Shown piece by piece: positions 27,202 through 64,000 of a DNA stretch of 64,000 nt; position 1 is the stretch's first letter, and the number at the start of each line of letters is the position of its first letter. The DNA is from Convolutriloba macropyga (Eukaryota), in NCBI RefSeq assembly GCF_964194025.1, contig NC_134479.1, positions 17,794,001 through 17,858,000 of the forward strand, in the 5' to 3' direction. The notes under the pieces were generated by a model. That model saw only the letters and a program-made list of their open reading frames with translations. It was not told the origin of the DNA and ran no database searches. Made by a program: the position numbers and the translations under genes.

Positions 27202-29293
27202 CTACAAAGAATTCAGCTCTCCAATTCGCTGCTCCCAATATAAACCATCTGAAGGCAACCTCTTGTTGAACGGAAACAGGAAATACAAAACAGGAACTGA
27301 GGTCCCGAAAACTTGACGGATATTTGCGCGCCAACCCCGAGAATACTGTCTCACGTCATGCAGGGCTTCATACGACGTCTGACCTTCGAACAGTAAATTG
27401 AGCAACCATCCACTGTAGAAAATTGAAACAACAAGAATGGCAAAATTCAACTGCAGGACCAAAATGAGAGCAAATGTTAAAGTGTGTCCGTAGAAAATCA
27501 GCCCGATGCACCATCCAGGTATGCATAAGACGAGGAGGTACCAGGCATGTGTCATTTCGTCGATGGCGTACAGGTGGTAGTCCACAATGACGTCATAAGA
27601 CTGGATCATCACAATCATCGATATGTAGAGCAGATAGAATGTGAACACGAAGAAATATCTAAAACAAAAACCATTTTGAAATATCGTCCATTTTATTTTT
27701 TTTTGAACTAAATCTTTTTATAATACATATGATATGTTACTGTCTATTAAAGATCTCATTGTTATCATAACTTGGCAAATAGCTGTATTTACCGAGTATA
27801 TCTCCACAATTCACTTTTTTTGCTCACAAGATGAAAAATCGCCAATATGCTATGGATGAAACTTCTAACAGCTTGCTCAATTAACTCAAAACTGGATTAA
27901 TCCGTTACCACTGATCACTCAAACTTTGTAATAATGCTATAACTAAAATAACAATACTAAAAATTAGTCATTATTTTCTGCGGATAGTGTCACATATTTC
28001 CCTAGCATCAAAAGAACTAATTTTTGAGGACTTCCTTCCGCAGAAACATTCTCAATTAGCACAAATTGATTTTATTACAACTTACTTCAGTCCCGAGAGA
28101 GATGATAAACGCGCGCTGATCTACAATGTGTCTTTTTAATCAGCAACTAGATCAGACTTGAAACCTGTCCCTACAATTTACTCCTCCAAACCCTTAATCC
28201 ATAGTTCTTAAAAGTTGATTTTTGGTTGTTTTGTCTTAAGCCCTAAATCAATTCCGACTATTTTTTTCAAAATCCCCAGTGGTAATACGTCTGATTCCAA
28301 ATCTTTCTGCTCAATCTGTAAAGTCTACACTCTTCTCTTTCTTCCAGTTGCATGCTTTTCAAAACTCGGAATTTAGTTTATTTCGCAAGAATAGATGACA
28401 AAATTTTTAATATTTCGTCCATATTTTATATGAATAGTACTCAAGTTCAAGGCAAAAACTGACGTAAACTGCAATATAGTGATGAAATATTGTCGATATA
28501 ACCCAAAAATCTCTAAGCATAATTTTTCGAGCATAATTTTTCGACTCTAATATGTATAATGTATCTAATATGAATCTAGTATCTCGGAATTTAGTATATG
28601 TGGGCATACAAATTACAAAAACTTAAAATTACAACAGCTGCACCGCGCTGCCAAAACACTGCCGTCAACAAGTTAAATTGCTTTCTAGTTGAGAGCAATG
28701 AGAAAACGTCGCATAAGAAATGGTCAGACAAAAACTGGTAGCACGAAAAATCGCAAATGCCATCCGGACTAACAAATAATTGCAACAGACTTCCCCTGAG
28801 AGAAATTATGAACTTAATCAAAATTAGATTACTCACCGCATGTTGAAATGCCCAATACATGTCGAAAAGAGAAAGCAATGATGATCGCGTTTCAACACAC
28901 ATTTGTTGCACTCAAAACAGTGCGTGCATCTAGGAGGTCGCTCGTGGTTGCAAACAAGACAAAAGGTCCAGTTCGATTTGAACAGATTCGGATCCGAGGT
29001 CCTTACGCCTTCGAATGAACTGTTCACTGAACAAGTTTTGTACCAGTTCAGTAGAACTTGGACCAACGCAAACCCGAATATCAACCCATGCGTGAATCGC
29101 GAGTCCTTTGAATACAAATTGGGGTGCAGGTACAAATAAGTTGCCATCGTGTTGACAAACAGATACAAACCCATGAATACAATTGTAGCCGTTGCTAGAG
29201 CTGGCGAGTTTTTAGGCGATTTTTTGTGTCTGATAAAATCGCTTCGTAACTCGTGGCTTGAAGTGACTTTCTTCGGAAGGTTGGGTACGAAAC
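27202..29293 (-). CDS. DHHC-type palmitoyltransferase (ZDHHC22/24-like); exons 29293-28837 and 27658-27202, 5' end unresolved
   Basis: CLVCNHERPPRCTHCFECNKCVLKRDHHC..CIGHFNMR joins via a phase-2 GTGAGT..AG intron (28836-27659) to YFFVFTFY. Downstream are TM helices, QTSYE (TTxE-like) and YSRGWRANIRQVFG (PaCCT-like). Confidence 0.92.
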
Positions 29294-30211
29294 CTTAAAA
29301 AATACAAAATGAGAAACAACGAGTTGCAAAAAAATTGCCTTTAACTGTCATCAAACTCTAAACAATCATGGAACCGTTCAAAATCACTTCGGAACCGTTC
29401 ATATTTGACTATATGCGACATGGAGATTAAAAAGTTTAAGACTTTGATAAGCTGAAGATATCTTTCAAAAAAGTTCCAAAATGCATAATTTTCTTTGGTC
29501 AGTCCGTATAGCCGCTGCGGCCATTAAAACTAATACCCGTTTTTCAGAGAGAACAGACATCTTAGAATGTTTTCAGTAATCGATGGTTAACTGTCATCGA
29601 ACTCCAAAACAATCAAGAAACCTTTCGAACCGGTTATATTTGACTATATGCGAGTTTTTTTTTGAAAATTCTTTTATATTTCGCCACATATATCAGTCGC
29701 ACAAAATTGGCAAACCAAAAAAGGGACATTCATAATCAATGGTTGTAATGCTAGTTAATTATAAGATCTGAATTATACCAGGTTTCGTCGGCAAATTTCT
29801 TGAAAGAAGTTAAAACTAATTTTAGCATAATCAAAGTACCACGCCCACGTTCGGAAAAATCGAAAGCAGACTACTTAGCCACAGCAGCCCTGCTGTACAC
29901 AGAGAGTTTTACCTGCGTGGTTTGCATGACTATGGCTGTGGTCGCAGCATTGCTGTTGAGATGTTGCATGTATGCCGATTTCGACACTGTTGTGAACTGT
30001 TTCTGCTCCCATTGCAGCCATGTAGTAATATTGCACAAACTAATCTGAAAGTAGTATCATCACTCATATTCTACTACACTAAAATTATTGTACGTTACAG
30101 ATCAGGGCATAAAAAAACTGCAGCAAGTCTTCACAACTAACAAAAGATTGTTTATCAAACTCTAAACTGAACTAATATTTACAGCTATTTAACAAATAAA
30201 AAAGGACGAAA

Positions 30212-33200
30212 TTAAAAATTGTCGTGATCGGCGTTGTTATCGGTCACATACATCTCTCGATTCTCATAGTTCCAGAATCCATTCAAATCGATCAGAATAT
30301 TTGTTACTGTTTCGCCCTGCCCACTCGATATAAGGTCATCAAATGTTATCTTAAGAGGATCTGCAGGTTTCACCATATCGAAGATTTCGTCTTTGATGTC
30401 TTCGAAGGCTACAGGTTCCTGTTCGTGTTGGCGTAGTTGGTCCTATAAACAACAGTTAACGCTGAGCTGCAATCATTAGATTCAAATAGGGTTTAGAGCG
30501 AAAATTATGCAACGATATTGATCCATTACAGTCTCAATGAAAAAGTTAGTATCAATTAGTTCAATAAATCGCTGAAACAATCTGTTGTCTTTTAAAGACA
30601 CGAATAACACGGATTCTATCATTTAAAACTATTTATTAAAATCAGAGACACAACGAACTTGAGGATTTCTTTGCAAAACAATTGGTTGGGTAATCACGAC
30701 TCCAAAAGATCGATAGATTTTCAATCCAATGGCAATTTTTTTCCCGAAATCAGAAGCCAACACAAATATTGCCGTCAAAAATGGGAAAATAGCCGCCGTT
30801 GACCCGCTTGACGCACATTGTGATTGAAACAAAAAAAAACATAACCGGCAGATTGCCGGAATAGAGCTGCCTGCCGTATCATATAAGACAGAAACAGATA
30901 CAGACCTAAATTGAAAAAAAATCGACGCCGCTCAAAACGCTAGGTACAAAACATTCAGCCATAAATTAATTAAGCTTGTTATAATTCATTCTGCAGAAGC
31001 CTTTTATTAGGGACCTTTACTGCACATAGTCTAAGGTCAAAGGAAAGCATAACTTTTAAAGCGCAAGTCATTTTATTGTGTGAGGTAAGTCACGTATGAT
31101 CAAACTCTAATCACGCAAATGAACTTTGCTATAGAATTTTCATTGAGTAGACAGAAAACTAGACCTAGAACGGACTATGAGTGAATTGGGAAAACCATTT
31201 CCAAAAAAAATATCCAAGGAAAAATTGGTTCAAACAAAAAAGTTGGCCTAGCATGAACTATGAATGGAATGGGAAAACCATTAAAAAAATCCGATCCAAA
31301 AAATTGAAAAAAAAACAGTGAAAATCAAATTGAAATTGCCGCATGTGAACAAAAAATCACTAGCGAGAAAGCGAAATTTTGTTCAAACACCATTTTCTCA
31401 CTCTACTTTATTCACCCCGCAAAACCACTCGCTTTTTCGCTTAATTTCCTGTTTCAGCGTGATCAAAATCACTACTGCCATTTGACTTCAAAAATCATGA
31501 AAATATGTGAACAGAACTTTAAAAAAAGACAGCGCCCCAATACAATTCAAATTATTTGAATTGTGATAAGCCAAGAGCACCGCAACATAGCTCCACTCAG
31601 CATGCAGCTTCGCAGCTATAATAAGAGAGAAATTGACAGAATTTTTTTGAGTGTCAATTTTTTGTATTTGGTTTGCATATTCGGTTAGATTCCAAATTAC
31701 ACTTAGTTCGTGTTGTTTAAATTCTTTTTCCGACTACCGAGAGTTAACTAATTAGTAACCTATTTTAGTCCATTTTTTAAAATTGCCGTTGACATTACGA
31801 ACGTCTTTGTTAAATCTTCCGACGCCAATAAATTTGGATCACTCTTGTTCACAAGAGGAATGACCGAATAAAACGATTTGGATCATGCCTGAATTGATCT
31901 GAAGAAGTAATGAAGAGAGAACACGTCCAAGTAGCCAAGGTTTCTGATATCCAGAAGCTTAAAGATGTATTGCAAGGCTTGCGGTTCTCGTCTATTTTCC
32001 AGAGCCAGAACAAAGTCCAGATATGTCTTGTAGTCCATTTCACCTTCGTATGTTAAGCATTCCTGTCAACAGAAAACAAAGGACATCAAAAAGTTGTTAT
32101 TTTCCAGGATTAATCTTCTGAAATCTTTTGATACAAAAGGGCTGAAAACCATCTGTAACTATTTTTTAACAAAAATGACGTCTTTTGATGGAAAATAAAA
32201 CCAACTTCCAATATTCGATCGCATCTCAAAATTAAAATACCATTGCTTTGTATAGCAAATTGGGCATGTCATATTGATTGTTCCAATAAAAATGCATATT
32301 TTTTGTACAAACCTGAAAAATCCTGTCCAGAAAAGCCTGGGTCAATGTTCCAGTGCCATAATGAGCCAGCTCTTCTTTACTCAACATTCCATTATGATCT
32401 TTGTCCAAGTTCAAGTAATCGCCATACACTCTTAGTGCCGACGTTGCAGAGAACCAGTTATTGTTCAAGGATTCCTTCGTCAACTCTTCGTCTCTGAGCT
32501 CAAGAAGATCATCCAGGAAACTGCAGGCTAATATGTCTTGAATTTTAATTTTCCCGGATCGCATTGGATCGAGGAAGAAAAAGAACTTGCGCACCGCAGA
32601 GCAAACGTAAAACGAAAAGAATGTCTGGTCCAATTTTCCTAACTGAGGCAGAGTCGGAATCAGTTCCAGTATGTAGTTCTCAAGATCACTTTCCTTTAAG
32701 TAGCCCTGAAATAAATTTCGAAATTGAAACATAAACCGACCGGGATTCCAACTATTGACCTCCCGCTCCCTCACCAGAGGCACTGCCCACTAGGCTATTA
32801 GGCCCTTCTTGTTCCTTGAGAAGTCAAAGAATGTTCTAGAAAAGCGCAAAATGGTTAAGCAAAAAAATTGCATAAAAAAGACGTTTACTATAATTGCTAC
32901 GAAATTCGTTCGAGCGCAATTAAACACTCCATGGTTCTTTCTTCTGAGAAGCCCCCAGCTTGGGGCTAAAGTATATAGCTCCTCTCCAAATACCAAATTA
33001 CCGTCAATATACTATAATGACCTGGCAAAATCGGGTGGGTGCTATTCCGAGAGGGCAATAAATGGATGGGGGCTATAGTCAGGAAAGTCTGCCTCTTTGT
33101 GAAAACTCAAAACTCTGTACCATTTTTCAAATAACTAGTTTTCATATGTGATTTTGCTTACAGTCCTACTATTATAAGACCTGAAGGCAATTTTCAAGTA

Positions 33201-36200
33201 ATTAAAACAATTCTACAATTAAGGACTCGAACCTGGCCAGCAACGTCGTACAAGCTCAGTCCAATTCTGGTCTGATGCAACCACACTTTCCGCATCACAT
33301 AATTGAAGAAGTTCATGATTGATATTCTTCCGTAAGGATCACTTTGATATAGCTTAGCAAACACACTGGGCGAAAAGAAGGGTTTGCACTTTTCTCCCGC
33401 CTTGTCTGCTACTTTTGTGAAGTCTTCGTACGTAATCATTTGATCGTCACCGACTCCAAACCCACTCACACTTGAAGGGTTAGAAGAGTAGTTTTGCTCC
33501 AATAAGTACCAAAGATTTTGTAACTCCTCGTTGTCTAAAAATGTATAGCGATTCTATCGTTTTTCTTCTACAAATAAGATCTCCGCATTAATTTCAAAAA
33601 TCTATTAACACATTTTGATCACAAGGATGTGGAAAACTTATTGCAATTATTTGGCATTAGAAAAAGAAAAACAATCACGAAATCAACGAAACTTGCGTCA
33701 ATAGCAAAATTGATCAAAAGGCTATTCACTCGCAATGTTAATGTACAGGGATAACCATAACTCTTCCAATTTAACTTCTAGTGAAAAACAACCATAATTC
33801 AATGGACAATGGTAACGTTTTCGGCTCTCTTGTTGGTCTGAAGAAAATTTTTAAGTCAATAAAAAACACGCGCAAACATTTTGATTATTATCGAACCAAG
33901 TGCCGGAAGTTCATGACCGAAGTTCCCTACATTCATTAACTATGGCCACTTCATCACGGGAAAGATCCTGTCTTTATTTCACAAAGATAATTTGCAACAA
34001 AATGAACAAACTCGACGCTAGCCTTTCCAATGAGAAAGTTGCTATAGTTGATGGATGTAGGGTTACGGCCAAGATTTAATGATTACGCTAGTTAAACTAA
34101 AATTTTTTATCATAGCCTAAAAAACTCATCGTGCCAAACTTTTTTCGCAAAATGACTGCAAATAAATCACTGTATCAGTTCAACATTAAAACAAAATTCT
34201 TCGGTCATACAGCTAACAATTCAGAGATCCTTTAGGAATGCGAAAAAGCAATCACTAATGAATTATTTACGATATTAAAAAAAGAATCCTAATACCAAAT
34301 CAATAAAGGAATATTTCTCGTTACTGCTAAGGGATGGCAACCTAAATATCTTCAGACATAATGACATTCTAAAAATACACAAAACTTCAGTTCCACTTTT
34401 AGGTCTCTTATCGACATCGATACCACAATTTGAGTTAAAGCAACAGCTATTAAAATCTTAAAGTGTACTCTCAAATCAAGACAGACAAAGATTAGGGTCG
34501 AATTAAAATAATTTTCGTTCACATGATCTAGCCAGTGAAAAAGGAGTATCAAGTTAGCTTAAAAATATGCCAGCGAATACGCCAATTAATAATATCGCTG
34601 GGATCTGGTCAAGATGCAATCAATGAACGAAAAAGCGGCACATGCACTTCATTGTCCTGTGGGGTAAAAACATTTGATACTCAACGAAGTGGGGGATTAC
34701 TCCGCAAAACAATTGGTTTGGTAATCAAGACTCCAAAAAACCGATAGATTTTCAATCCACTGGCAAAAATTTATCCCGAAATCAGTAGCCAACACTTTAA
34801 ATATCAGGAATCGGTCAAAAAAGCAGCAAATAGTAATTGATGTTGACAGAACCCCATTCTATCCACTCATCTCCGCATGCACTGGTGGAGCTGGAACATC
34901 AGCTTCAAGACATCTGAGAATATGTTAAAAGTTATCTAGACAGATCAAAAAGACTGTAAATGCTGACACTATAACTTACCTCAGAGCAAAACTTGGCTTT
35001 GTCCTTTTAAGGTCCATACTTTACATCCGAGGCTACAGTACACCAATTCGGTGCGAGTTTACTGACGTTTCATTAACAGTAGTTGTGGAAGAAGTGAGGC
35101 TATTATTTTAATTCATCACCACGTCTTCTTAGAATTTAGCTATCAGATTTGCTGTCATTGAATTTCTTTTCAGTATTCGTCATTTCTCCATATAATTATG
35201 CATCTTCATTTTATAGATAGAGAGATAAAATATTTAAAAACCGATTGCTGCATGTAGAAATAGCTTGAAAGGCACCGGGCCAGGGTTAGAAGGCACCTAG
35301 ATTACTTTCTAAACTACTTTCTATTAAACTGAAATCTCAGAAAACTTATTGTAACTCGAGTTTTACCCAAAGATGCACGCGGATGGTTCTGTTGTATTCA
35401 ACAATATCGTCTCAGACAACGCAAATTCATCACCAAAACTTTGTATGTCCAACTGTTTTTAATTGCAACTTATTAGTGATGGTAGACTATATTGGAAACC
35501 ATTCTTCCAATCAACCATTTGTCAGCGGAGGCCTAGCTATACCCATCTGACGTTCTCCTTTATGCCAGCTATCTATTAGAGCAATTTTGGGGGCGCTAAC
35601 TATTTTGGTTTTCTCAGGCTTTTGTTTTAAAGATTTTAAGTCAGGATGCTCGAAAGAGTTCTTTTGGCAATTTTGAGTCTATCTCCAGAAATAAAAGTTT
35701 TGTGCAGCAAATGTTTTATTCACAAGTCATCTGAGCTGTAGCTATCGTTCTCTCTGTTCTGAGAGTGGCAATTAGATCAGAGCACAACATTTGATGTTAA
35801 ATATTTGCACGAGATAAAGTAAGAACATTGTACAATTTAATCTTTATAATCCCGGATGTTTATGGGCGTGTGAATGAGTTAAACTTTACTAACAATGGGG
35901 TAAATGCACGCGCATGGATTGTACAAATATGTTTAAGCATGGCACGAATGTATGAGGGGCATGACACTCCCACTTCTTCAGAAAAAAAATTAATGTCAAG
36001 TTTTCAATTTTCAGTTTTCAATGTCTTCTGATCTTAATTTATTCGCAATGAACTGTGATTCTGACGAGGCGCAGGCTGTCAGTTCTGTGTGCGAATCATC
36101 ATCCAGCGAGAAACACCAGAGAAATGTTGTCTGGGCGAGAGGGCTATGGAATTTTGTGTCAGCTGGAAGTGTGTCGTCTGTTCCAGAGGTGACCCGTGAG

Positions 36201-39200
36201 GAAATTGAGGGTCAGAGTATGGGTGTTGGCATTCTTCGCGGGGAGCCTCTGATGGAGTTCAGCAGCCCCGAGATGCAAGTAAGAATCTTGAAGTATGTGT
36301 AGAGGTAGTAATCGTGTCGTAGTTGTTGTTCACTGCATGAATTGTGAATGCATGTTGTGCTGTTTGGTTTTTACAGCAGTTGGCAACGGGATTGAGGACG
36401 CCATTGGATTTCGAAGGACGCTTCGCCAGCAACGAGAAGATCAGGCCAGATTGGGCTTTTCAGTCATGGATGTGCGAGGGTGTGTATCCTCGTGACATCT
36501 TAAGTTACCACCCGAGGCCACATCGCACTGAAAACTTGTCAGGCTTCTTCAACTTCCGTGTGTTTGGGGGCGAACGTCTGTATGATCCTAGCCTGCTCAT
36601 TGCAAACTCGTTCACGTACACAGGCCCTCATGTAGATTCTAAGCCCACGCTGCCCACACTTGCTGTTCTCCTCTTTGGCGTGAAGCTCTGGATTATATGT
36701 CCAGACATCAAGACAGACACGGCAGCGTTCATTAGAGGGCTGAATTTGAAAGAAATGTGCAGCTTCCTCAAAGTAATTGCGCAATTAGTTCGGTTTTGAC
36801 TGTTTTTTGTTCCTCTGCTGACACTATGAGAGCATAGTGCGGTTGATGTTCTTGATTGTCAAATGTCATGCTTGTTCAGGGGCCAGCAGGGAAAGGATTC
36901 ATATTCGTGATTCAACGGCCTGGTGACACGCTGTATCTGCGAGAGATGGCTGGGCACGCTGTCCTCACTGTCAATGGTCTCCCTGGCATCGACTGTGGGA
37001 TCATTGAAGAGGGCTCGTGTCTGCTATCGTCACCAGTGGTCACGGATTTGTCTCCAGAGAGGTTGCACGGGTTAAGTTGGATCGTTCCGTCTGGTAGTCG
37101 TGCTGGAGGGCACGATTATCAGCATCTGAAGAGGAAGCACAAGGAGGATCCCGTGAACAACCCGGCACCCCCTGCTCGTAAGAGGAAGCAGAAGAAGAAG
37201 GCCCGGTTTGGAAGAACTCAGCGCCCAAAAAGTTAGCTCAATGACAAGTGGTATCAAATTTTACTGCACTTTTTTTCCCAAATAGTATTGAATAAATAGC
37301 GAAAAATTGAAAACTGAATAATACGAGAAATGCGGTAATACCCATATAGCACAAAGCACAATGTTTACGGTCTGTATATTAAATTTGAGTTGCGTAGCTC
37401 AAATAACAAGATGAGGCTTTTGTTTTTCGTATTTTAAGAAATTTTATAAATAGCACACAGATCCGATAAAAGGTAAAATTAAACATAATATAGTGCACAG
37501 AAGCACGTGAAAGAGGGCATATAGCACGAAGGTTGTTATGATAAATAACTGTGTTAAAAATTACAGCGCTAACTTTTATAGTTAAGCCAGGCTTTTGTTT
37601 TAAAATACACTGTTTTTTTTAATAAAGTTAAAAAAAATAACACGAAATTAAACTTTTTGGTTCCTTCATGAAGTCCAATCAGCACAAAATTACGCATTTA
37701 ACACAAAGCAATAGCTGAGGAGTGTGTATAGAGAAAATGAGAGCTTTTGAACAAAGGGCACTACCAGGCTTTTGTTTTAACTGCAGCAAACTTTTTATAA
37801 ATATCACATTCAGAGGGTAATTGTAATCGATTACAACATAAGTACTAAGCTTAGCCACTCATATGACGTGAGCAGGCACATGTAGGAGCTACGCTGAGAT
37901 TTATAGAGAGATTGAGCCAATAGAGTTGTCAGGCTTTTGTATTAAAGAAGCATTAAAAATAAAGCAACAATAAAACTTGTTCGTCAAATAAAACATAAAT
38001 TAATTTAAAAATATTTGCGTTTAAGATTTTGTTTTACCCATATGACATTAAGCACATAAACTCGGATTTTTTCAAATCATTGAAATATTTTTTATTTTTT
38101 CAAATCATTGAAATATTTTTTATTTTAGAGCCAACAAGCAGCACACAGCTTCTAGACGAGGGAAACAGCAGCGAATAGCTGCAAGCAGAAGGGTGGGGAG
38201 AGGAGGGGGACAGGGGGGAGAAACGAAGCATCGTCATTAAGTTTTAGTAGGTATATCCACTTTATTTATACTTGAAAAATTTTCTGGTTATTAAATTGAG
38301 AAGTAGCACACATATTGAATCCGCGATATTCTAACATATTTGTAGCAATTATTCGTTTCGGTAGTTTTGGTGGACGAATTGTATAATAACTTTCATACAG
38401 CTCCAGAAATAAATGTATTTTTTTTCTGTTTTTTTTTCAATTTATATGAGTATTTTTTTTCTTTTCACAATTATATAATTAAATCTTTCAAGACAAAATC
38501 TTTTATAATTGAGTATAGGACTGAGAGTAGCACAGGTATAATAAATTGTTTGTGAGTGAAAAACACCCAGAATCAAATCAGTAACTAATGGTTTATGAAG
38601 ATTTTCAGATCTATAAAAATGATGTCAAAGATATTGTTTGTTGCATTATTTGCTATGATTGTTACGAGTGTTGATATTAACAAGTGCATTTTATTGAGCG
38701 AAGAGAACAATTTTGGGACAAATTTGAAGTGGTTGTGTTGTGATGGAGTACAATTTTTGATCGAGGATGGAAAAATTACAGCAAAAGCAGGGGCATGCGA
38801 AAATTCCCAAAATAAAGTGAAGCCTTCAGCTGGCAGCATGTTAATGATAGCCAGTTTTGCAATTGTGCTACAATTACAGTTGTGTCATTAATATAAGAGT
38901 AGTAGGAAAGTGGTGAAGGAAATCAGTTTAATGAGAGCAAGTAGATAGAGTTGAGTAAAGTGAACAAAACTTGAAAATTTCAAAAACAAAGAAACTTTTA
39001 GTTTTATTTACCATACGTTGAATCTGTAAATGAATTAAAGTTTGGAGAAGCCTGATCTATATATTTTTCATTAAGCACGCGACTCATAAATCACTTGAGG
39101 ATAAATGGGGGGCGGAACATTCGATTGCTCTGACTCTGGACAAGATGCAGATTGAGAATCCGCTGTATCAACAGTAGTTGTTGAAGGGCTAAAAAATGGA

Positions 39201-42200
39201 TTTGGTAAATTTAAATCACGTCGTCGGAAAATTAATCCCTTTTCGCGAATACGATGATTAGGGTGTTGTCGCAAGTAGTCGTAATCTTCATCAGAAACTA
39301 CCAAAATGGGCTGTGATTAAATAGTGTGGGCAGAAATAGTTAGGCGAAATGAGAAACGTCTATGAACTTGAATGTACCGGTGAAAAAGATAACTCAAAAA
39401 GTGTAGACCGAAAGATAACATCAAAAAGTGTAGACCGAAAGACAAAATAAATGTAGTGATCGCAAACACAATATAAGGTGTCCAGTGCACCGTCTCATCG
39501 AATTTTGCTGTTATCTGAGGATGAAATTGTTTCATGCGATTAACAATAGGTTCAGTAACTTTTTCGAGTTCTTTATAATTACGTCTCTCATGCTCAGGAA
39601 TGTGAATTAGTTGGAGATGAACCTCCTCTACTAATTGTACTCGAGCAATGTCAACATCAGACATTTGTGGCATAGAATCAAGAGATGGAAGTTGATTGAA
39701 TAAAAAGCTAAGCGGCGTTGGTAAATTAATGTCGAGTCTAACTGGTGTTGTATACTGACAGGTAGACCAATCTGATCTTAAATGTATATTAGGTCCTTCT
39801 AATTCCTGTCCACACGCTAAAATAATAATGCAAACTTGGCACCCTTGTCTATGTTCTTTACTTAGGGGATGAATAGAATTCGGAGATCTAGTCGAGAGCA
39901 GAAAGTTTGGCGTTGCACTAGTAATCAGCCATCTACCATGGCCTAACGATTGAGCCTTTTCTTTGATAGGTAATTGAATTGATCTGATGCTACAAACTTC
40001 GAGTGCGGATAGAGTGTCTTTAAAAAGCAAAGTAGCCAGACATGAGTCCTTCGATTTTTCCATCGCAAAAGAAGAGAAACAAATTGAGTAAAGCTTAGAG
40101 CCTATACATTCTTGTAAGTCAAATTCAGTCAAAAGTGCAGCTTCACTTTGCGTTTCTGTTACTGCAATGTAAGGCGTTTCTAAAACCCAAATGGTTGCTC
40201 TTGTTGACTCTTTAGTTGGCATTGGAACTGGAATAGCGTGAAATACATCTAAAGCTGTAGAGCCTGATGAAAAAGGTATAGATAATGTTAACATAAGACC
40301 AGAGTCGACACTAACAACACTTGTAACAAGTCGTGTCTCATAATAAGACATCACATGTTCTATTGGAATTGAAAGTGTTAGTCGATCTCTGGTGTATTGA
40401 GTTTCTAGCAAAACTTGTTGTAAAATTCGAATAAAAATTTTGCGAGGTATAAGAGAAAGTGGCAGCATACCATCTGCAATGGCAGTAGTCGAGCTCAAAA
40501 TGTTCATTCTAAAAGCAAAAAGAGCAGATCTATATGTGCGCAGATTGGTGTATACAGACGTTAAAATAGAGTTCAACAGTCCAATGTGGTGATTGACTTC
40601 TTCACGGATATAAAGAAATTGGTCACAATTTCGCATGTAGTTAATGCTGCTAGCCAATGTGTCAAACTGTGTCTGTAAAATTTTAACGTTAGATCTCTGG
40701 ACTTCAGCTAGATGTTCTGTGGATTTACGCAGGTCTCGGAGTTCCTTTCCTACTACAAAAAATTTCTCGTTCGTGGCGTTTTGGACACTAGACCATTCTT
40801 GCTGTAATTGGTTCATGTGGTTGATGGAGTCTACAATAGCTTTTCTATTCTGCTTACCAATCTGATTGCATCCGCCAAACATTCGTCCTAATGTACAGGA
40901 TAGTTTGTCTTTGAATCCCATGCCCAGACCACAGATTCCAGCTGCAGCGCCTGCTAACAGGGCAACGGGAATGCCTCTTCGTTCTCGATGTTGATGCTCT
41001 GTAACTTTTGAGGGGAACAGCTCTGAGTTCTTGCTGAAGTTTCACCAAGTCGTTTTCGGCTCTTTCTTTCTCTGCAATGACTTCGGTAAGAACCCATTGT
41101 GAAGTGAAGTTGGTGGCAGTGATGTTACTGTAGTCAAGTTGGCATCCCTTGTTGGGGTGATTCCAGAGTGTGTCCATTCTTTGTGCGATTTCAGAGATAA
41201 ATTTATCAATTGTTAGGTCAAAATTTGGAAAAGACAAAACAAATTGAATCTGTTCAAATTTTTCAGCCAATAGTATTTTTCGATGGTAATTAAAAACAAT
41301 GCCATTATTTTCTGAGTTTCCTGCTATCAGAAAAGGAAAGATTATTAATTGAACAAGCGAAATTGAATACAAGTTGTAACCAAAGTTGGCCATTCTTTAG
41401 TTGAAATTTGTTTTCTTAAGTTCGCCAAATGTTAGTACTGCTCAATTCGGCTGATTTTTGGATAAATGATCTAAATATGTGAATATTTTGGTTTGTATTC
41501 TGAGTGTGTTGAACTTTATCAGAAAAGGTTATGTTTGAACTGACGGGAGTGATATCCAAAGTTTAGTCAAATTAACTTTTATCAAATGTTACTAGATTTG
41601 TTTGCTGTTTCAGTGGAGCACAGGAAGGACATAGTTTGCGTACTTAGATAATCTAAACAATTAGTTTGCGAATCGGTCAGAGTTCGATGAGCTGGCTTGA
41701 TAGCGTTTTGGTACGTTCACCTCTCGGCGAAGTTCATATGCCCTGTTAGTTCCAACGCGTGGATCTTGATCTGGTGGAACTAATGAGCGGCACCTTCTTT
41801 TTGATTTATTTGGCGGATCCAAAGGAACCGCTTGTGAAAACACGCTGGTCGGTTGAGTAGTGGCCCGTGTAACGTAATTTGGATAGTTTCGGGTATCAAT
41901 GAATTCGGCACTCTGAGTAGTTGGTTGGAAGTGTTGGTTTCCTTCTACCACAAATTGCTCCTCAGTATTTTTATACTCTTCGTGACAAAAGCCTGGCCTG
42001 TTTTCCTGGTTTTGGGTCTGTAGAGGTCGCAAAATGGGCTGCTCATCATCTGATTGTTGTAATATGGGGTCTGAATTTCGTCCATCAGCAACTAAATTTG
42101 TGTTATTATCATTTTCACGTCGGTTTATATTTAATTGCAGTTCCGGATTATTTGCAAAGTATGTTGGAGCATTAAAACGTGATCTCACACCAAATTGAAT

Positions 42201-45200
42201 AATTGAGGAACCATTAGATGGTCCCACTATGATTGGCGAGTGGTGGGAGGCTAGATCTTTTAGGGTTTGGTCAAAAATTTGAGGTTCAGAGATTATTTTT
42301 GTGATTGGGTCGGCTTTAAAGATTTTGGAGTCAATCTCTTTCAAATCTTCAAACTCGTATTTTGGTTGAATTGGACGCAAACGAATACGATGTACGAGTT
42401 GTGTATCGTTGGTATTAACTTTGCGAACTATATAGTTTGAATTTGTTAAAACTTGCTCAACGCAATAGAGCGGTAACCATTTGGTTACTGATTTAGCAGC
42501 AAAGTCTTTTGTACTACTTATTTTTGGGTTCATTAATAGGCAGTACGAATACAATACTAGAGGTTTGGAAAGAGCTTTTTTGTCATAGAAACGACGATAT
42601 TTGTTGTATGCAACTATGGAATTATCCCTAGCACCAGCAAAGAGCGTGTTCATACGGTCTTGACTTTGTTGTAAAAAGTCTTGAGTTGGTTGCGCTTTTT
42701 TGACAGTTAAATTATTGAATCGCAAGTCAAGGGGCTTTGTCGGCTGACGGCCATGAAAGAGCAGGGTCGGGGGGCATCCTATTGAAGAATTATAAGTGGT
42801 GTTATAGACAAAAGCTGCGATATCAACATAATGATGCCAGTCTTTTACAATTATATCTTCATAAATATGCAAAATTCGTTTTACTATAGCATGGCTACGT
42901 TCAACTGCACCAATTGTTTGAGGATGTTTTACAGATGCCAATTTTAGTTCAACTTCTAGCAATTCACATAAAGTTTTCATCATCTTTGACGTGAAAACTG
43001 AGCCCAAATCACAAAATGGTTGATGGAAGGTATGCGTGCTGCATAAAAATTTGAAGCAAAAATCTGGCAACGTTTTCCGCCGATGCATTTTTCATTGGGA
43101 TTAGAAAAAGATAACGGCTGAAGATATCCATCGCAGAGAGTATTTGTGTATAACCTCCGGAGGGATTAAGTTTGCCTACAATATCTACTTCCATCAAATC
43201 TCCCGGAAAATATTGTTCTGACGCAATTGGTAAAAGAGGTGTTTTTAGGCTGTTTTGCTGAACTGATTTGATTTGCAAACAAGATGAACAATTGGACACA
43301 TACTCTAAAAGAGTTTCTGTAAATTCAGGAAAGTAAAACCTCTGGCGAAACTGGTTTGCAGTTTCGGCTGTTCCAATGTGTCCCATAAATTTGCTATTGT
43401 GAATTCTAAACAGAATCTCATGACGAAGGTGCTTAGGAAGAACCAACTGACGTATAAAATTCTGTCCGGTGTTATCGAAAATTTGCGATAAAACACATTA
43501 TTATACAATTCCAATCGGTTCAACTGTTTATTATATTTTTGCAATTCGGTATTAGAGTAAGTTGTAACTGGTTTCACTTTTCTCTTGATCCAATTGATCA
43601 GTTCTAATATTGCCATCTTTTTGTTGCTCCTCAAAAAGATTCAAGGACTGGTTGTTATTGCTGAGATCAAACTCATCTAAGGGGTTAGCTTCTGCGAGTG
43701 AATTTAAGGGGAAGTCAAAAGAAGGCTCAAACACTTCAATCAAATCAGAATCTGGTTCCTCTAAATAACACTGTAAAGCTGTAAGACTATTGTCTGGAAT
43801 TTTTGGTCGGAATTCGACAGCAACGTCTTTAAGTTGAATTCTGGTTTCCAATTTTAGTTGGAGCTTTGTAGCAGGATTAATATAGATCCTAGACAAATAA
43901 TCTACGGCTACGTTAGCTTTACCTGGGACATGCCCCAAAACAAAATTGAAATTAAGGACATGATCAACTGCATTCCATAAGGGAGTTGGAACTGTCTTTG
44001 CCTGGAAAAAACTAGTCAAACTTTTGTTGTCAGTCAACACTAAGATAGGTTTTTTAGTCCCCCATAAGATGTGCGCAAAATTATCAAAAGCAAAATGAAC
44101 TCCCAGAAACTCTTTTGCATAAATTGATAATTTAAGTTCCGTTGCATTAAAGATTTTAGAACCAAAAGCCACGGGAGCGTATTGCTTCTGTTCTAGTCCT
44201 TCCTGGTTCAGTACATAGTCCTCTACCATAAGGACGTATCCTGCGGAATAATAGCTTGCGTCGGACAATATTACATATAGTAGATCTGTTTTTGGTGGGC
44301 GAAGGGTTATTTTACAAGCATTGTTTAGCATTTCTATTAGTTCACTCATCGATTTTCGGTGCTCATCCGTAATTTCAAAATTGTTGTTACATTTTAGTAG
44401 TTTGTAAAATGGGAGCAGTCTCTCACTGAGGTTCGGTAAATAGGTTCTAAAGTATTGAAAGAAACCAACAAGTCTTTTGAGTTGCTTGAAGTTTTTTGGC
44501 ATTTTGAGATTTGATAAAAATTTATCTATTTTTGCCTTTATGGGGGATGTTCCTTCCGATGAAATTGTTCTACCTAAAAATGTGATCTCGGGGACACCAA
44601 TTTCACATTTTCCCATTGATAACTTAAGTCCTGAATTTCTAATACACGTAAAGATAGCTTTCAAATTTCCGTAAAGACCCTGAAAATCAATTGCGCCTGT
44701 TCCCAAATCATCCACGTACTGGAAACATTGGTCATTAGCTATACATGAATCAAGGTACTTTCTCATGAAAGAGCTGAAGGCACTGACTGATCTACTTAGT
44801 CCCTGTGCTAACCTAGTGTACGCAAAGGTTCGGGAGGCAAAATTGAAGGCTAATAACTGGACAGATAATGGGTCAGACATCTTAACCGCATAATACGCCT
44901 GACTACAATCTAGTTTTGCGAAAATTCGTTTGCCCGCTAAATGTGCTCCGACATCTTCCATAGTTGAAATCGGGAAATTGTTAGAGTTGTAGTCATGGCG
45001 TATTAAGTGATTAATACGCCTAAGGTCAACTAATAGTCGGAGTTTTCCGGACGGTTTGTGTTGCGCAAAAAGAGGGCTCGAGTGTTTGGAATAGGGCAGT
45101 GTAGTGATGATTCCAAAATACTGCATTATAGCTTAATCAATGAGGATTTCCTCGCGCAAGTGAATTGCAGTGGGTGGGCTCTGAGTATAAACTGGTCGCT

Positions 45201-48200
45201 GTGTTTCAGGTGTGAGCTTAATCTTAAACTGGTCATTTCCACCGACATCATAATTGTGCCGCGCAAAGACATCATGAAAAGAAACTAAAAGTTCTTCAAT
45301 TTGTTCCTTTTCTTGTTCAGTTAAAATTGAATTGTCCCACCGAAATTTTGAAAGACATTTTTTCCTAGACTCAGAATCTTTTGTTGGATCAAGCTTTTCT
45401 TGTTCTTTCAAAAATTTGAGTGTCTCAAATATTCTTTTGTGAATACCGGTTAATGCATCTGGGTCCTCACAATTTTCAGGTGTAGGAAACCAAAAGCAGT
45501 CTGTTGGAAATGGTAAACTTTGCTGGGAATTGTCAACAAGCTCGTTTATGTTGCTGCCATCTATATTTAAGAGCGCTGGGTCAATTGGTTGTAAATACTT
45601 TGCTTGCTTAGGCGTTAAAATTGTAAATCGAGCAACTACTGCTCCCTTTGGTACTGAAACTACATTTGGGGTTACATTTAAGAAAGCTATTGGCGTTTTT
45701 GAAGATTGGATTTTTGAAAAGGAGCTGGTTAAACAAAGACCTGTTGATCTTTCAAAACGTGGGTTAGGATCTACAATTCCAATTGTGTTGTCGGCTAAAA
45801 TATTGTCGAGAAAACAATCTATTGTTTCCTGACTATTTGGGGAAAATGTCCAATTTTTGGATTGTTTTGAGAACGTATTTATGTTTTTCAAATTTCGTTC
45901 TCGTTTTGCCATTACGCATTGTCATTTCTGAAATTTGCAGAAATTTCAGGCAGGTGTAGTTTTTGTGATGCTACGTCAATTAGATTTCTATTGTTTTTAT
46001 AGAATGGAAGACCTAAAACTGGGTTATTCATTTTGGGCAACAACAAAAACTTTTCTGTGGATACTTGATTAGCGAGAGTGAAGGTGATTTCAACTTCACC
46101 TAGGGTTTTTGCATGGGTTGCGTTCGCATTTAATACTCTGCGGTGCAGATGATTTGATTTTCTCAAGCATGGACGGTGTAAGAGCACTAGAGAAAGCACC
46201 AGAGTCCACTAAAAACTTTAAGGAAAGTGATTTAAACGTTAGGGGAACAAAAAACAGATTTGAGGAAAAAGGATCATAACAGCAGTTGGAAAAGGGGGTT
46301 GCAAATGTGGCTGACCTAGTTTTTTTGCTGATCAAATGGCAGTTGCTAATTTCTTTCAGGTTGAGGTTTGGACCAGCAGTACTGCACTGTGTGTCCATAC
46401 TTTCCACAATTGCGGCAGTATCTCTGGTTTTTGATGGGCATTGTATTTGACCAGTGTCCTGCGTATGCTGTTGGATAGCCTGATGCTGGGTAACCTTGTG
46501 CTTGCACACCCGCTTCATCAGTTGTCGCTGACTGTTGGCCGTGGGACTGATAGCCATAAGCCTTGTAGACTGGCTGCTGTTGTCCTGTTGTTATATAGCC
46601 CGGTCTTTGAGAGCTGATTGCATTGTGACTCTGATTATTTTGATGCCAGCTTCTTTGTTGGAAAGGTTGTTGCATCTGCCAGTTTTTGTTAAACTGGTAG
46701 GGCGGATTAAACCGCTGTCTTGGGTAAAACCCACCTCTGCCTCGATAGAAATGGTGCGGCTGTCTAAAATTACTATAAGGAGCATTAGAGTTTGCATTTT
46801 GAATTTTATGCTCTTCCAGTGACTTCGCTAATTTGTCTGTTGTTTCTTTCAGCTGTTTGATTTTTATTTAAGGCACTCATACTCTGAATAAGTGAGGTCA
46901 TTTGTGAGGCTGAGATTTCACTAAATGCTGTTCCGACATCATCTTCAGGGTATTGCTCTTCAAGCATCGCCCTTCTAGAAGCCCGTTCACATAAGTCTTC
47001 TACAGTGGTGTGGTCAGGAAGAGTGAGTAGATACTTTTTAAGCTTATTTGGCAAACCATTAATAAAGTTCTCCTTAACTCTTCTGACTCGCTCATTAGAA
47101 CGATCTTCAGCAGCAACTGCTGGCACGCCAGCAGCGGCAGCTCGCGCAGCAATATTTGGGAAAGCAAGACTAGCTAAGCGTTGCAACTCTGTCAAAAAAT
47201 CATGAATGCTTTCCTCTGATTGCTTCAGTTTTCTATTTTGGAATTGGAGTTTATAAAGTTCAATTCTATCAGGGTTTACATACCGGTTTCTCAATGCGTC
47301 TAGTGCTTGATCCAAGTCTTCACGTATGGCTTCTGTAAGCTGGTCATAAAAAACTAAGGCATTACCTTTAAGATGAAGATGCAAGTAGCGATGTTGTTGA
47401 TCCTCGTCGATTGCTGCCAATCCAATGCAACTTCGAAGTTGTCGTTCAAATTGAGTAAAATTATCTTTCTCTGATCCCGAAAAGGGCGTCAAATTGAGAA
47501 AAGGTTGCAACTGAGCCATAGTTTACAACAAGAGATTGCAGAGTTTTACGATTTAGTTGTCATTTCCAATGGGAGTCATATTTAGTTTTAAGAGAAAAAA
47601 TCTCTTGACTCAAACTTGCCAAAAACACTCCTGTCACCATGTCAGCGGAGGCCTAGCTATACCCATGTGACGTTCTCCTTTATTCCAGCTATCTATTAGA
47701 GCAATTTTGGGGGCGCTAACTATTTTGGCTTTCTCAGGCTTTTGTTATAAAGATTTTAGGTCAGGATGCTCGAAAGAGTTCTTTTGGCAATTTTGAGTCT
47801 ATCTCCAGAAATAAAAGTTTTGTGCAGCAAATGTTTTATTCACAAGTCATCTGAGCTGTAGCTATCGTTCTCTCTGTTCTGAGAGTGGTAATTAGATCAG
47901 AGCACAACATTTGATGTTAAATATTTGCACGAGATAAAGTAAGAGCATTGTACAATTTAATCTTTATAATCCCGGATGTTTATGGGCGTGTGAATGAGTT
48001 AAACTTTACTAACAATGGGGTAAATGCACGCGCATGGATTGTACAAATATGTTTAGGTATGGCACGAATGTATGAGGGGCATGACACAATTTCCTACCTT
48101 CTCCGCTAAAATAGGAAAACGTGTCCTAAAAATCATGAATGAAACAAACGGAAGCTTCGGACTTGAATGAAAAATATCTTGTACTGAAGAACGTTTCAAC

Positions 48201-58952: not shown

Positions 58953-61900
58953 TCTCTGAAATGATTGCAATTGCTGTAGAGATTGCTAATTGCTGAAAAG
59001 AATTCAAACTATTGCACTTGCTTCCATTATAACTTATTTTATAATTAATCGTGTGAATGTTTTCTTCAATCCATTCTTCGATACTCTGTCCTCTCCTGTT
59101 GCATGGCTGGGCTTTTAGTTATGACACCCCAATTTTTGGCAACTAAGTAGCGGTGATATCTTGAAAAAAGTAAACACAAGAAATGCCATTGTACTTGGTA
59201 AACTGTCATTTGTGAAGCCAATTAAAGTGACCACCAATTTGGCGGCTCTTTTCATTTTTACATGAGTGACGCATAACCATCGGATATAATCATCAAGTTT
59301 AGTAGAACAGTTTAATCAACAAATGACCCTGTAGTAGTAGTAGTAGTAGTAGTAGTTCAGGCTTCTGCAATGCACGGGTTGAAGCACCCTTGTTGATCGT
59401 TATAAATGAGATATTTTCGAAATGGGGTTACAGTTTTTGCACAGGCAGCAAATTCTCCAAGTGCACATGTCAATTTCGTTAAAACTTCTAAAAAAGAATT
59501 TCCAATAAATGTCGCTGATCCGATATTTTATATTTTTGTTGTCTGTAAGGTCTGTCTGTTTGTTGACAATATTATAGAGATAGGCTGTTCTCGACCAGAA
59601 ATTTTCGTCGCTTTTGAATAATCGTTTTTTCGTAAGTTTGATTTCACCTTTCGCTCCTTGTCTCGTCCGATTATTGTTGTTGAAATGTATAAACTTTTCT
59701 ATGGCAATGTTGTATTTATTGTTTATGAGATCACATAGTAGTAATAAGCTGTGAAGTTCGAAGTAAAAAGACAGAGGTAGAATTTTTAGTTTGATTAAAC
59801 GCTCCTTATATGTGAGAGAAGAACCTATTATCCATTTCGTCGCACTTTTTTGGATTCTTTCGATGAGTACTAGATCGCATTTAGACGGATACCACTCTTG
59901 GCAGGCGTAGGATATAATTGGTACAATGTAACCCGTGTATGCGTTTAACTTAACTTGAGGGAGAGTTCTGTGGTGAAGATTTCTTCTGAGGTACCAAAGT
60001 GCTTTGAGTTTTGGAGGCTCGTGTGCTTGCTTTTTGATGCCAAGTGAGGTTATCACAAACTTGTATTCCGAGATCTTTTTGATGAGACGAGATGTTGACA
60101 GTTTCATTTTTTATTGTAAAGAGTGACTTTTTCTTGAAACAGAGGATCTTGCATTTGTTTTCATGGAGGCGCATTTCGTTGTTATTGCACCATTCATTTA
60201 ATTTCTGGAGGTCAGTTTGAAGTTCATGTTTGTTATTAGAGAGCAATTTGTAATCATCTGCATAACCGTAGGTTTGACTGTATTCGATTTTTTGTGGTAA
60301 ATCATTTATGTAGACGAGAAAAAGTAGTGGCCCCAGGATTGAACCTTGCGGTACGCCGCTAGTGACGTCACGAAGGCTCGACGTTGAGGTTCCAATGCGA
60401 ACACGTTGTTTTCTGTCGTCACAGTAGTTGGCTATTAATCTGAGCGCTTTTCCCCCGATCCCTGATTCCGACAGTTTTGCAACAACGCGGTGGTGGGGTA
60501 CTGTATCAAACGCTTTCTGGAAATCTAGGTAGAAAACGAAAAGTTCATCATGTGCAATTGAGTCGACTTCTTTGTACAGTTGGTCTAGAATGCATAACAT
60601 TTGAATAATTGCTGAACGTTGAGGCCGAAAACCAAACTGGGAATCGTGAAGTGTTCCTTTAACGTGCTCATAGAGTTTGTTGAAAATAAGTTTCTCGAAA
60701 GCTTTTGAGAGGCAACATAGGCAATTAATTGGTCTATACATTTTGATTGCGGTTTTATCGCCCTCTTTGTGTATTGGCGTTATGTCACTTTGTTTCCAAT
60801 ATGCTGGAAATTTACCTTTGTTAATGAATGTTTGAAAAAGTAGAAGTAAGGATCTGCTTATTGTTTTTGATAGATTTTTCAGAAACAGGTTACTTATATC
60901 ATCAGGGCCGTTGGCTTTACTAGTATCAAGTTTGTTTAGTATACTTTCAATTTATTTTTCTGAAATATCAAAGCGATTAAGATCTTTTTCTTCAAAATTG
61001 AACTGGTTCTCAACATTTGATATTTTTGAATTGAAAACACTCTGGAAAAATAAATTGAACAACTCGGCTTTCTCTTCATTGGTGTTAGCAGTTTGTTCAT
61101 TTAGGTGCATCTCGCTTGGGAATGGTGTGACTTTTTTAATTGATCGTAAATATTTTTGAATAACGCTGAATTGGCGTGTTGCGAAAATCTCGCTTTCATA
61201 GATGACTTGATCCTTTTTACAAAGTGTGTTGACTTTTTCTTCGAGACAATCTGTTTTGTTTAGTGTGCTTGGAGCAGGACTTGGATGGGCAATTGCTTTT
61301 CGTTTCAAAGTTGATAGTTTTTTCATTTCATGGGATGTGCTTTTTGACACCCACGGGGGGAGCTGTGATCTGTGCTGAGTTACTCTTGCGACATTTTGAT
61401 CGAAAAGGCGATTGAACCATTCATACCATTGTTTAAGAAGTTCGTCAACGTTACTGTAACAATAGGGGTTAAATGGGTTTTTTGAGATGTTGCAGTTGAA
61501 TTTAATCCAATCTATTCTTTTGTAAGCGTATTTTGGTCTGCTGCGATCGGTCGCTTGATCGTAGTTGCATTCGTATCGTGTTATGTAGGCGTAATGATCT
61601 GAGCATTTTTTGTTGTTGAGGGCATAGTTATTACTAATTTTGGTTTCGATTTTCGAATTGATCCAAAATTGTGATTCGTTTGTTAGGAAGACATCTAGCT
61701 GTTTTTTGTACCCCAAAAAGTCAGTGAAGTTTAGCATTTGTTCAAAATTTTCATCTACGAAATAGTTGAGCCAGGTATTGTCAAGTTCATCTGGTGACGA
61801 CATTTGTTTCCAGTCAGTGGTTGAGAAGTTGAGATCTCCTGTAATGATGATTGATTTTGGCTTTGTTTTCTTCTCTAAAAACTTTAGCGTTTGTGTGAGG

Positions 61901-62316
61901 TCTTCAAACTTCTGCTTGCACCATCTGTATGGGCTGCCTTTAGGTGGGTTGTAAATGCAGACAATTAGGATTGAGTCATTTTTAGTGTTAATTTTTACGA
62001 TTAGGCAACCCTCACATGTGTTCTTAACGAACAGTTCTTTAGATTGAATGTTGTCTTTTACCGCCACTAGAACACCTCCATGTTTTGAGACACCGCATTT
62101 TGAAGTTCTGTCATTTCTGTGAATGACATAATTTTTGAGAAAGGGTGCTTCATTTGGAACTTCTTCTGTGAGCCATGTCTCGGTTAGGCAAAGAATGTCT
62201 GGATTGTAGGGGACAATAGCGTTTGCAAATGCAAATCTTCGTGGTAGATCAATGAAACTATGTAAATTAAACGTTAGAATTGATACCTCTTGTTTTTTGT
62301 CTGTATTTTTTGCGAG

Positions 62317-63058
62317 TCAGGTGGAATACCGAGCATTGTCTAAGTACTCGACCCAATTTTCATCTTGTTTTTCGTATAATGTCAGATTCATTACTTTCAA
62401 GCTTTTTCTGGGGAAACCTGCGTCTACTAAGTCTTTTCGCTTTTTCAGACAGTTATTCAGTTGCTCTTCTTCTTGTAGGGAGTAGTCTTTGCTAATGTAC
62501 ACTGTTTTGCTATATCGTTTCAATCTTGAGAGTGAGAGTAGTAAGATGCGTTTGTCATACATGCATGGCATAGTTGCAAGAATGGTACGATGCCTTCCAT
62601 CTTTGAAAGGAAAGCACCCATGCGCCTGCAGTCCGTCATTTGCAGTTCTAGCCTTTACTGTGGGGTTTTTTTTCAATGTTGTTGTTAGCTGTTGGCAGTT
62701 TATTCTCAATTTCATTTATTTTGCTGCTAATAGTTTCTTTGATTGTGTTTTGAATGTCCTCTTTTATTTCTAGATTGTTCTGTTTTTGTGGTGGACTTTT
62801 TATGATGTCCAGAATCACATCACGTTTGTTCTGCTGTACGCAAGCGTTGCATAGAAGCAGAACGTTTTGATTGACCTGTTGAAGTGCATTTATTATTTCG
62901 ATGCTAAGTTTTTTGCAGCTTGGGGACATGTGCATGATTGTGGCACAGCATACGCAACGGAAGATTGCCTCTTTTTTACCATTTGGCTTAGAACAGGTTT
63001 CACATTGGATACTCATACCCTCTAATTGAATTTGTTTACCAGATGTTTTGGAACTCAT
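62317..63058 (-). pseudogene. LINE ORF1 with PHD finger (frameshifted near 62670); twin at 56592-57328
   Basis: CETC..CVCC...HMSPSC...LLLCNAC PHD-like pattern, coiled-coil segment and C-terminal VYISKDYS typical of CR1-group ORF1. Confidence 0.8.
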
Positions 63059-63171
63059 TCCGTTGTGTGTGTGATTTATAGAAGAATTCGAAGTTTAAAC
63101 GGGTGGAACTAATAAATTGGGGAAAGAAAAAAAACTTATTTACCTTTGGAACCAATTACTGGTACCGTTGG

Positions 63172-63757: not shown

Positions 63758-64000
63758 TCAGTCTTCTTTTATTCACCCGTCCAAGCTAGGAACGGACGGG
63801 GCTTGAAGGAAAGATAGATATAAACCGTTGGAACCAATAACTGGTACCGGTGGTCTTATTGATATAGTTCCTAGCTTCAAATGATCTGAAATCACACAGT
63901 TTGTAAATTTGTTCTATTTAATAAGTTCTGTCACGCCAAGTCAAGCCTTTGAGAGAAAACTTGGAGAAAACGCACGATGGCCCGGCACTGCCTTCTTTCG

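Follow-up and report, generated by a model that had tools for sequence, protein, structure and literature searches.

The window analysed here is a stretch of 64,000 nucleotides from Convolutriloba macropyga (NCBI RefSeq assembly GCF_964194025.1, contig NC_134479.1, positions 17,794,001 to 17,858,000). It contains a 12.6-kb Ty3/gypsy long terminal repeat (LTR) retrotransposon (Metaviridae) that lies on the minus strand and reads from 48086 to 35520. Between env and the 3′ LTR, the element carries a module on the opposite, plus strand, the main component of which is a predicted JmjC gene. Three plus-strand open reading frames (ORFs), beginning at 36021, 36341 and 36856, join in frame as exons of 258, 396 and 357 nt to give a predicted protein of 336 amino acids. 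A preliminary description of the locus had reported two oppositely oriented genes and a periodic motif array in this region. Both are present, but the larger gene consists of three exons rather than separate ORFs. Its parts are given below with the proportions of synonymous (pS) and nonsynonymous (pN) differences between the window family (family A) and a second family of elements (family B).

36021..36278, plus strand: predicted exon 1 of the JmjC gene, 86 codons from the ATG; pS 0.66 versus pN 0.50
36279..36376, plus strand: predicted intron 1, 98 nt, GT-AG, phase 0; same position in family B
36377..36772, plus strand: predicted exon 2, 132 codons, with His at 36629, Asp at 36635 and Lys at 36683; pS 0.71 versus pN 0.42
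36773..36879, plus strand: predicted intron 2, 107 nt, GT-AG, phase 0; matched by a 33-codon intron in family B
36880..37236, plus strand: predicted exon 3, 118 codons and the stop, with the distal His at 36955 and a basic tail resembling a nuclear localisation signal; pS 0.68 versus pN 0.43

The antisense JmjC gene

The GT and AG dinucleotides of the predicted splice sites are conserved in all nine close copies of the element. Family B, in which the reverse transcriptase (RT) is 77% identical and one copy has LTRs that are 99.3% alike, encodes a JmjC protein with 36-45% identity and shares the intron positions. When intronless database homologues are aligned to family B, the gap spans exactly the 33 codons of its intron 2, and this independently supports the splice model. 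In a DNA alignment made blind to the reading frame, third codon positions differed by 0.21-0.29 in the ten diverged copies, versus 0.08-0.21 for first and second positions, a pattern found in all ten. The third positions of the JmjC exons diverged at the same rate as the introns in this alignment. Against family B, pS exceeded pN in each of the three exons (8, 0 and 0 exceptions in 500 bootstraps), in a test that uses codon-aligned sequences and is somewhat biased towards low pN. We conclude that the three antisense ORFs are exons of one predicted JmjC gene under purifying selection. The gene is fully open in three of the nine close copies, including that of the window, and broken or without an ATG in six. 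The basic tail of family B contains R-K-S-T in most copies (L045:2897-2930), a string that is absent from family A and may be due to chance; we take it to recall the context of H3K9.

To characterise the product, we built a profile from families A and B and searched 1.84 billion proteins. This returned 31 matches, one of which was spurious (a PKD-repeat protein). Nine of the 31 match Pfam JmjC at E < 0.1 and three exceed the curated cut-off, while the Pfam JmjC_2 cut-off is passed by one relative within the genome. Neither the window exons nor the family B read-through reached the Pfam cut-off for JmjC, and exon 2 had no match when longer proteins were searched by word index. Antibody light-chain entries in the searches with single exons and the family B read-through were dismissed as chance matches that included intron residues. 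Against solved structures, a wider family profile matched KDM7A/PHF8 best (E 1.7e-5 to 1.8e-4), followed by PHF2, JMJD6 (E 0.01) and KDM2A. Exons 2-3 of family B were modelled with AlphaFold, at a mean predicted local distance difference test (pLDDT) score of 70 that fell below 50 over the intron. By Foldseek and VIA-align, this model is predicted to carry the double-stranded beta-helix fold, and JmjC proteins occupied all of the first 36 Foldseek matches listed, with JMJD5 first and JMJD6 seventh. Language-model features of exon 2 (Atlas) pointed to JmjC/Cupin_8 clusters at 0.92-0.94, among them one named for JMJD6.

The predicted protein contains His171, Asp173, Lys189 and His244, which correspond to the H-x-D...H triad and the cosubstrate lysine. 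Of 24 rows from elements and the database, 21 retain the triad when read by eye, across 20-45% identity, and most full-length homologues end in a Lys/Arg-rich tail. The protein is, as predicted from these sequences, a compact JmjC Fe(II)/2-oxoglutarate oxygenase. A non-catalytic protein that reads methyl marks or acts as a decoy, competing with host silencing factors, would fit the three rows without part of the triad. It would also fit one lineage with two antisense JmjC-like genes (L089:4254-5009 and 6754-8244), one a frame of 497 aa with H-x-E-F-G-G, the other degenerate and without the triad. However, the conservation of the triad in the other 21 rows is hard to explain by a non-catalytic role, and we regard such a role as improbable.

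The fold matches are relevant to a further possibility, that the enzyme is active on non-histone defence proteins, as an arginine demethylase or hydroxylase like JMJD5 or JMJD6. Proteins of the PIWI pathway carry methyl-arginine marks and could be substrates. The Foldseek ranks of JMJD5 and JMJD6 and the JMJD6-named Atlas cluster are in line with this, as is the compact JmjC-only build, which resembles that of small hydroxylases. Conversely, KDM7/PHF8 outscore JMJD6 by 6-9 bits in the sequence profile search, JMJD5 is not among the matches listed, and the basic tail of most full-length homologues suggests a nuclear location. We consider a non-histone defence substrate unlikely, though a serious candidate.

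The surrounding element and its copies

The remaining features of the element, from its left to its right end in the window, are as follows.

35515..35519, no strand: left copy of the target site duplication (TSD), CCATT
35520..35966, minus strand: 3′ LTR, 447 bp, with a motif copy at 35616-35625
35967..35979, minus strand: polypurine tract (PPT), abutting the 3′ LTR
37339..38130, plus strand: degenerate array with a unit of ~175 bp; the LTR motif is present in each unit, four times in all
38622..38891, plus strand: small antisense gene g2, 89 aa, with hydrophobic N- and C-termini and a Cys-containing beta-sheet core
39071..41393, minus strand: env, class I fusion protein of the F type, in three pieces in the window copy
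41661..46590, minus strand: pol, encoding protease, RT, RNase H and integrase, with several stops and frameshifts
46346..47519, minus strand: gag, with a CCHC knuckle at the C-terminus and one frameshift
47626..47639, minus strand: primer binding site (PBS) for tRNA-Leu(CAA)
47640..48086, minus strand: 5′ LTR, with the motif at 47736-47745
48087..48091, no strand: right TSD copy, CAATT

The two LTRs are identical at 438 of 447 bases and have TG...CA ends. The 14 nt of the PBS are complementary to the CCA-bearing 3′ terminus of a host tRNA whose anticodon is CAA. The two TSD copies differ at one base, while the 5-bp TSD is perfect in seven of nine further copies of the element. An uninterrupted copy of the repeat targeted by the element (53695-54817, 96-98% identical) supplies the empty site within the window, with a single CCATT at 54414-54418. 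Pfam matched RT, RNase H and integrase, and more weakly protease and gag (Retrotrans_gag, E 1.5e-4, under the cut-off), in the protease-RT-RNase H-integrase order of Ty3/gypsy elements. Sequence features and hydropathy of the third ORF, env, indicate a signal peptide, an RERR cleavage site, a fusion-peptide-like stretch, heptads and a transmembrane segment. Env had no sequence match in Pfam or the PDB. Its Atlas features placed it with Fusion_gly/Baculo_F clusters (0.93, 206 shared features), at low recognition; in the top two rows, 11-27% of members carry these families.

The preliminary description had called this a complete 12.6-kb element with LTRs, PBS, PPT and TSD, from a potentially infectious lineage. 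Its structure is indeed complete, but gag, pol and env of the window copy are all split by stops or frameshifts, so that three intact ORFs are not present and the label potentially infectious does not apply to this copy. Open env frames occur in many near-identical copies of other env-bearing families in the genome. The sense-strand architecture is thus real and ordinary, and it is the antisense JmjC cargo that constitutes the finding.

An LTR search of the genome yielded at least 44 matches, and we fetched six other near-full copies (92-98% identity), two partial copies, one solo LTR and 13 older loci (65-89%). All six near-full copies have the order LTR-gag-pol-env-module-LTR, and all six also have broken sense genes. 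The module likewise lies between env and the 3′ LTR in older subfamilies. Every one of the 21 fetched loci with the 35966-37240 stretch has adjoining LTR sequence. The earlier view of the accessory region as an integral, LTR-linked part of the element is therefore upheld: env followed directly by PPT and LTR is not the family norm, and the region did not occur independently of LTRs among these 21 loci. Later insertion of a DNA transposon or a long interspersed nuclear element (LINE) is rejected, as the module is collinear across all near-full copies and subfamilies. One deleted copy of 2.9 kb (L013, G000:C4:42946519-42949450), flanked by a perfect TSD, retains only the LTRs, an open JmjC gene and the array.

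The small gene g2 is under purifying selection relative to family B, and it has antisense relatives across the env-bearing clade in which the Cys pattern and hydrophobic ends are conserved. Its predicted structure, a four-stranded sheet between two helices (predicted template modelling score, pTM, 0.41), had no fold match. The g2 product is likely a membrane-anchored surface protein working beside Env. An 84-aa sense ORF overlapping g2 (38585-38884) was rejected because conservation across families lies in the antisense frame. The putative host-modulating accessory genes of the preliminary description can thus be specified as encoding a predicted JmjC oxygenase and a small membrane protein. 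In families A and B, the small gene is positioned tail to tail behind env. In lineages with antisense genes between integrase and env, such as L094 (9493-9870), env and a gene for a small membrane protein are arranged head to head, with ~130 nt between that gene and the env frame, and this layout suggests a shared bidirectional internal promoter.

The array is linked to the LTRs by the motif AGGCTTTTGT, which has seven matches in the window versus 0.32 expected, a number reached in none of 100 shuffles. Four matches lie in the array (spacing 175, 177 and 165 nt), one in each LTR and one in pol, in agreement with the earlier report of a motif common to the accessory region and the LTRs. Five of seven other close copies spanning the array have five array motifs; in the window copy, a 28-bp duplication (38066-38121) replaces the fifth. 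A second short motif is found ~75 nt upstream of AGGCTTTTGT in LTR and array units alike. The LTR-array alignment scores above 300 shuffles, while the units share only 29-41% outside the motif, and Tandem Repeats Finder did not detect the array. Family B has its own motif of 13-15 nt at the same LTR offset, with two copies in the spacer, and its LTR-spacer alignment score was not above shuffles. Families A and B therefore both have a family-specific motif arrayed in non-coding element DNA. The array period is near the nucleosome repeat length.

Several other features were observed in the window and the genome. Host exons on the minus strand at 27202-33553 encode a DHHC palmitoyltransferase and an EF-hand protein that we take to resemble a PP2A regulatory subunit. 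Decayed remnants resembling LINEs (PHD, endonuclease, RT) occupy 49449-51123 and 55083-63927, where a DUF5641 Bel/Pao-like fragment and a 2.6-kb duplication of 99% identity are interleaved with them. Tandem arrays of intron-containing tRNA genes occur at G000:C11:45.16-45.22 M and C1:80.69-80.73 M, with periods of ~345 and 615 nt; the one gene read has anticodon CAA, and ARAGORN missed the arrays.

Antisense genes in other env-bearing families

With a distant database homologue as the query, we identified 11 further places, in ten regions, of the same genome. All ten regions contain divergent JmjC frames antisense to element genes, nine of them between integrase and env and one in tandem copies beside gag. 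In the latter region (L075, G000:C2:27.096-27.106 M), a 1.14-kb unit is present at least seven times in tandem, and every copy contains a JmjC frame. We also picked 20 loci from 61 env matches by env similarity alone. In ten of these, the spacer between integrase and env contains JmjC on the antisense strand (E 1e-13 to 1e-30; E 2.1 for the best reversed control).

We placed these lineages on an RT tree of 35 rows, midpoint-rooted and limited to in-genome copies, from which three low-coverage rows were dropped and in which two long rows are unsure. JmjC-positive lineages fall into at least six supported clades. Because negative lineages are nested among the positive ones, the tree suggests that JmjC was acquired long ago and later lost or replaced in some lineages. 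Among the loci fetched, there was no host JmjC copy of the module gene outside an element. Scans of viral and metagenome contigs for the genomic context of the database homologues recovered no locus.

These distributions also bear on whether the module might be a captured host fragment without function. The six broken or ATG-less close copies, and the half of the env-picked loci without JmjC, could be read in this way. However, breaks in single copies are expected after insertion, and selection on the antisense frame between families largely refutes the idea. Together with the retention of the gene in at least six RT clades and the lack of a host copy outside an element among the fetched loci, this makes a functionless fragment highly improbable.

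In all six JmjC-negative loci that we inspected, the integrase-env spacer carries another antisense gene with several exons (L094:8130-9383, L096:7656-9016, L098, L104, L106 and L108). Two motifs, G-x-C-x-F-S-S and G-[YF]-H-C, are conserved in this alternative gene, the N-terminus of which has a His/Cys region. The motifs are reminiscent of an OTU-type cysteine protease, a reading without support from Pfam or PDB profiles, which gave no match.

A candidate counter-silencing enzyme

We propose that the JmjC gene may encode an anti-silencing demethylase that removes repressive histone methylation from the chromatin of the element, with a probability of roughly 0.45. Genomic RNA would be made from the 5′ LTR, and the JmjC introns would pass through reverse transcription unspliced because they are antisense in this RNA, an established logic that we extend to this element by inference. 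The 3′ LTR, whose promoter role is suggested by its position, would drive an antisense JmjC mRNA towards env, and this RNA would be spliced at the two phase-0 introns. The product would be imported into the nucleus via its basic tail and, as a catalytically active enzyme, would strip a histone mark such as H3K9 or H3K27 methyl. As the enzyme has no recognised DNA-binding domain, we propose that a host factor binds the 175-bp motif array, which might thereby aid local action. A role of the array as a promoter or enhancer for g2 is as plausible. More tentatively, we may be dealing with a deep retrovirus-like clade with an exchangeable antisense counter-silencing cassette. Here, a JmjC histone demethylase would act at motif arrays that co-evolve with the LTRs, would be replaced by an OTU-like protease in some lineages, and would always be paired with a small surface protein. 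We regard this wider scenario as possible but rather doubtful.

Several observations weigh against a self-directed histone demethylase. Single exons, like the family B read-through, did not find JmjC among Pfam or PDB sequences. The sequence profile favours KDM7 as the subfamily, but fold searches and a second profile do not. Foldseek puts JMJD5 first rather than KDM7, plain cupins such as CENP-C score level with JmjC in VIA-align (Z 9-9.7, root-mean-square deviation 3.4-4.2), and a profile of the H-x-E-[FW]-G-G lineage gave no KDM7 match. Among the fetched host JmjC loci, the profile scored best against one locus (E 6e-6) that is presumably JMJD4-like. Reader domains of the PHD, chromo or Tudor type are absent from the protein, and Pfam identified no PHD or CXXC on any exon. 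No convincing LTR-shared motif array was detected in 11 integrase-env lineages. Finally, JmjC was not detectable in ten of the 20 env-picked loci, some of which come from families rich in near-identical copies, so an element can spread without it.

The antisense gene HBZ of HTLV-1 is spliced, adjoins the 3′ LTR and encodes a bZIP regulator. The analogy with HBZ drawn in the preliminary description applies to the orientation, and in the window element also to the predicted spliced antisense gene by the 3′ LTR. It does not extend to the product, which is here a predicted enzyme without homology to the bZIP protein of that true retrovirus, nor to most other lineages, in which the cassette sits in the integrase-env spacer, at a distance from the 3′ LTR. 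Retrotransposons carrying a DNA methyltransferase (DNMT) have reportedly been found as well. The list of epigenetic cargo in a 2026 preprint comprises DNMT, TET, methyl-CpG binders and chromodomains, and no Jumonji or KDM (10.64898/2026.05.21.726589). The DNMT- and DAM-carrying retrotransposons encode their own epigenetic enzymes, as proposed here, but these are DNA methyltransferases.

The closest structural parallels are the F-type env-carrying Ty3/gypsy elements known across animals, the "ancient errantiviruses" of Chary and Hayashi (PMC13524379). These share gag-pol-env, the protease-RT-RNase H-integrase order, an F-like class I fusogen, a tRNA-Leu PBS and multi-copy families with the elements described here. 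Unlike here, the main text of that paper has no JmjC, Jumonji, demethylase or antisense gene, although its supplements could hold such elements unannotated. Extra enzymatic ORFs have been described in rotifer elements (PMC5408684), and an AlkB/ALKBH5-like extra ORF in orchid Ty3/gypsy (Tat) elements (PMC9289625), in a paper that does not mention JmjC. The orchid cargo is likewise an Fe/2-oxoglutarate oxygenase in Ty3/gypsy with conserved cofactor residues. It differs in acting on m6A RNA and in being recent and confined to one family of a plant element, whereas the present gene is JmjC, antisense, predicted to be spliced in two families and spread over a deep env-bearing clade.

This precedent for an RNA-acting 2-oxoglutarate oxygenase raises the possibility that nucleic acid is the target of the enzyme, for example the RNA of the element, its tRNA primer or its cDNA. 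In our data, TYW5 is tied among the VIA-align rows, and the basic tail could bind RNA. On the other hand, the motifs are of the JmjC rather than the AlkB type, and one host locus, which we take to be TYW5-like, scores only 6.5 bits against the profile. We give a nucleic-acid substrate a small chance.

Viral precedents for JmjC genes include JmjC-only, KDM4-like genes in giant endogenous viruses of Amoebidium (PMC11244446) and JmjC ORFs in the wasp virus LbFV (PMC5381508). As in our element, these are reader-less JmjC genes in mobile elements, some with introns, and they were proposed to counter or manipulate host chromatin. The sources are large DNA viruses with a resolved KDM4 origin, whereas here the carrier is a retroelement and no donor subfamily is assigned. 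As proposed for LbFV (PMC5381508), the enzyme might demethylate histones at host genes and adapt the cell to infection, in the germ line, in stem cells or in immunity, and the lack of a visible targeting domain is consistent with this. Yet genome-wide demethylation would cost an endogenous element, and the LTR-shared motif array in families A and B hints at self-directed regulation, so that action at host genes seems to us a minor prospect. A parallel for self-directed regulation is VANC of the Arabidopsis VANDAL elements, which binds a family-specific motif and lowers DNA methylation (PMC5735166). Both systems combine an element-encoded factor with short family-specific motifs in one orientation in non-coding element DNA. 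However, VANDAL is a DNA transposon whose VANC binds the motif, while no DNA binding is predicted for the JmjC protein.

Our literature search, which covered few subscription papers and no repeat databases or supplements, found no paper on JmjC in an LTR retrotransposon. If our proposal of an anti-silencing demethylase is true, this would be the first retroelement-encoded histone demethylase. How animal retrotransposons counter chromatin silencing is an open question. Most of the element-encoded counter-measures known so far come from plants and protists and target methylation of DNA or RNA. A JmjC protein that is small, cofactor-complete and selected across many env-bearing families would be a testable candidate for such an element-encoded histone demethylase. 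The gene also indicates that an LTR element can keep an intron-containing antisense gene. Single-ORF annotation combined with Pfam scans misses such cargo, and therefore more of it may hide in other genomes.

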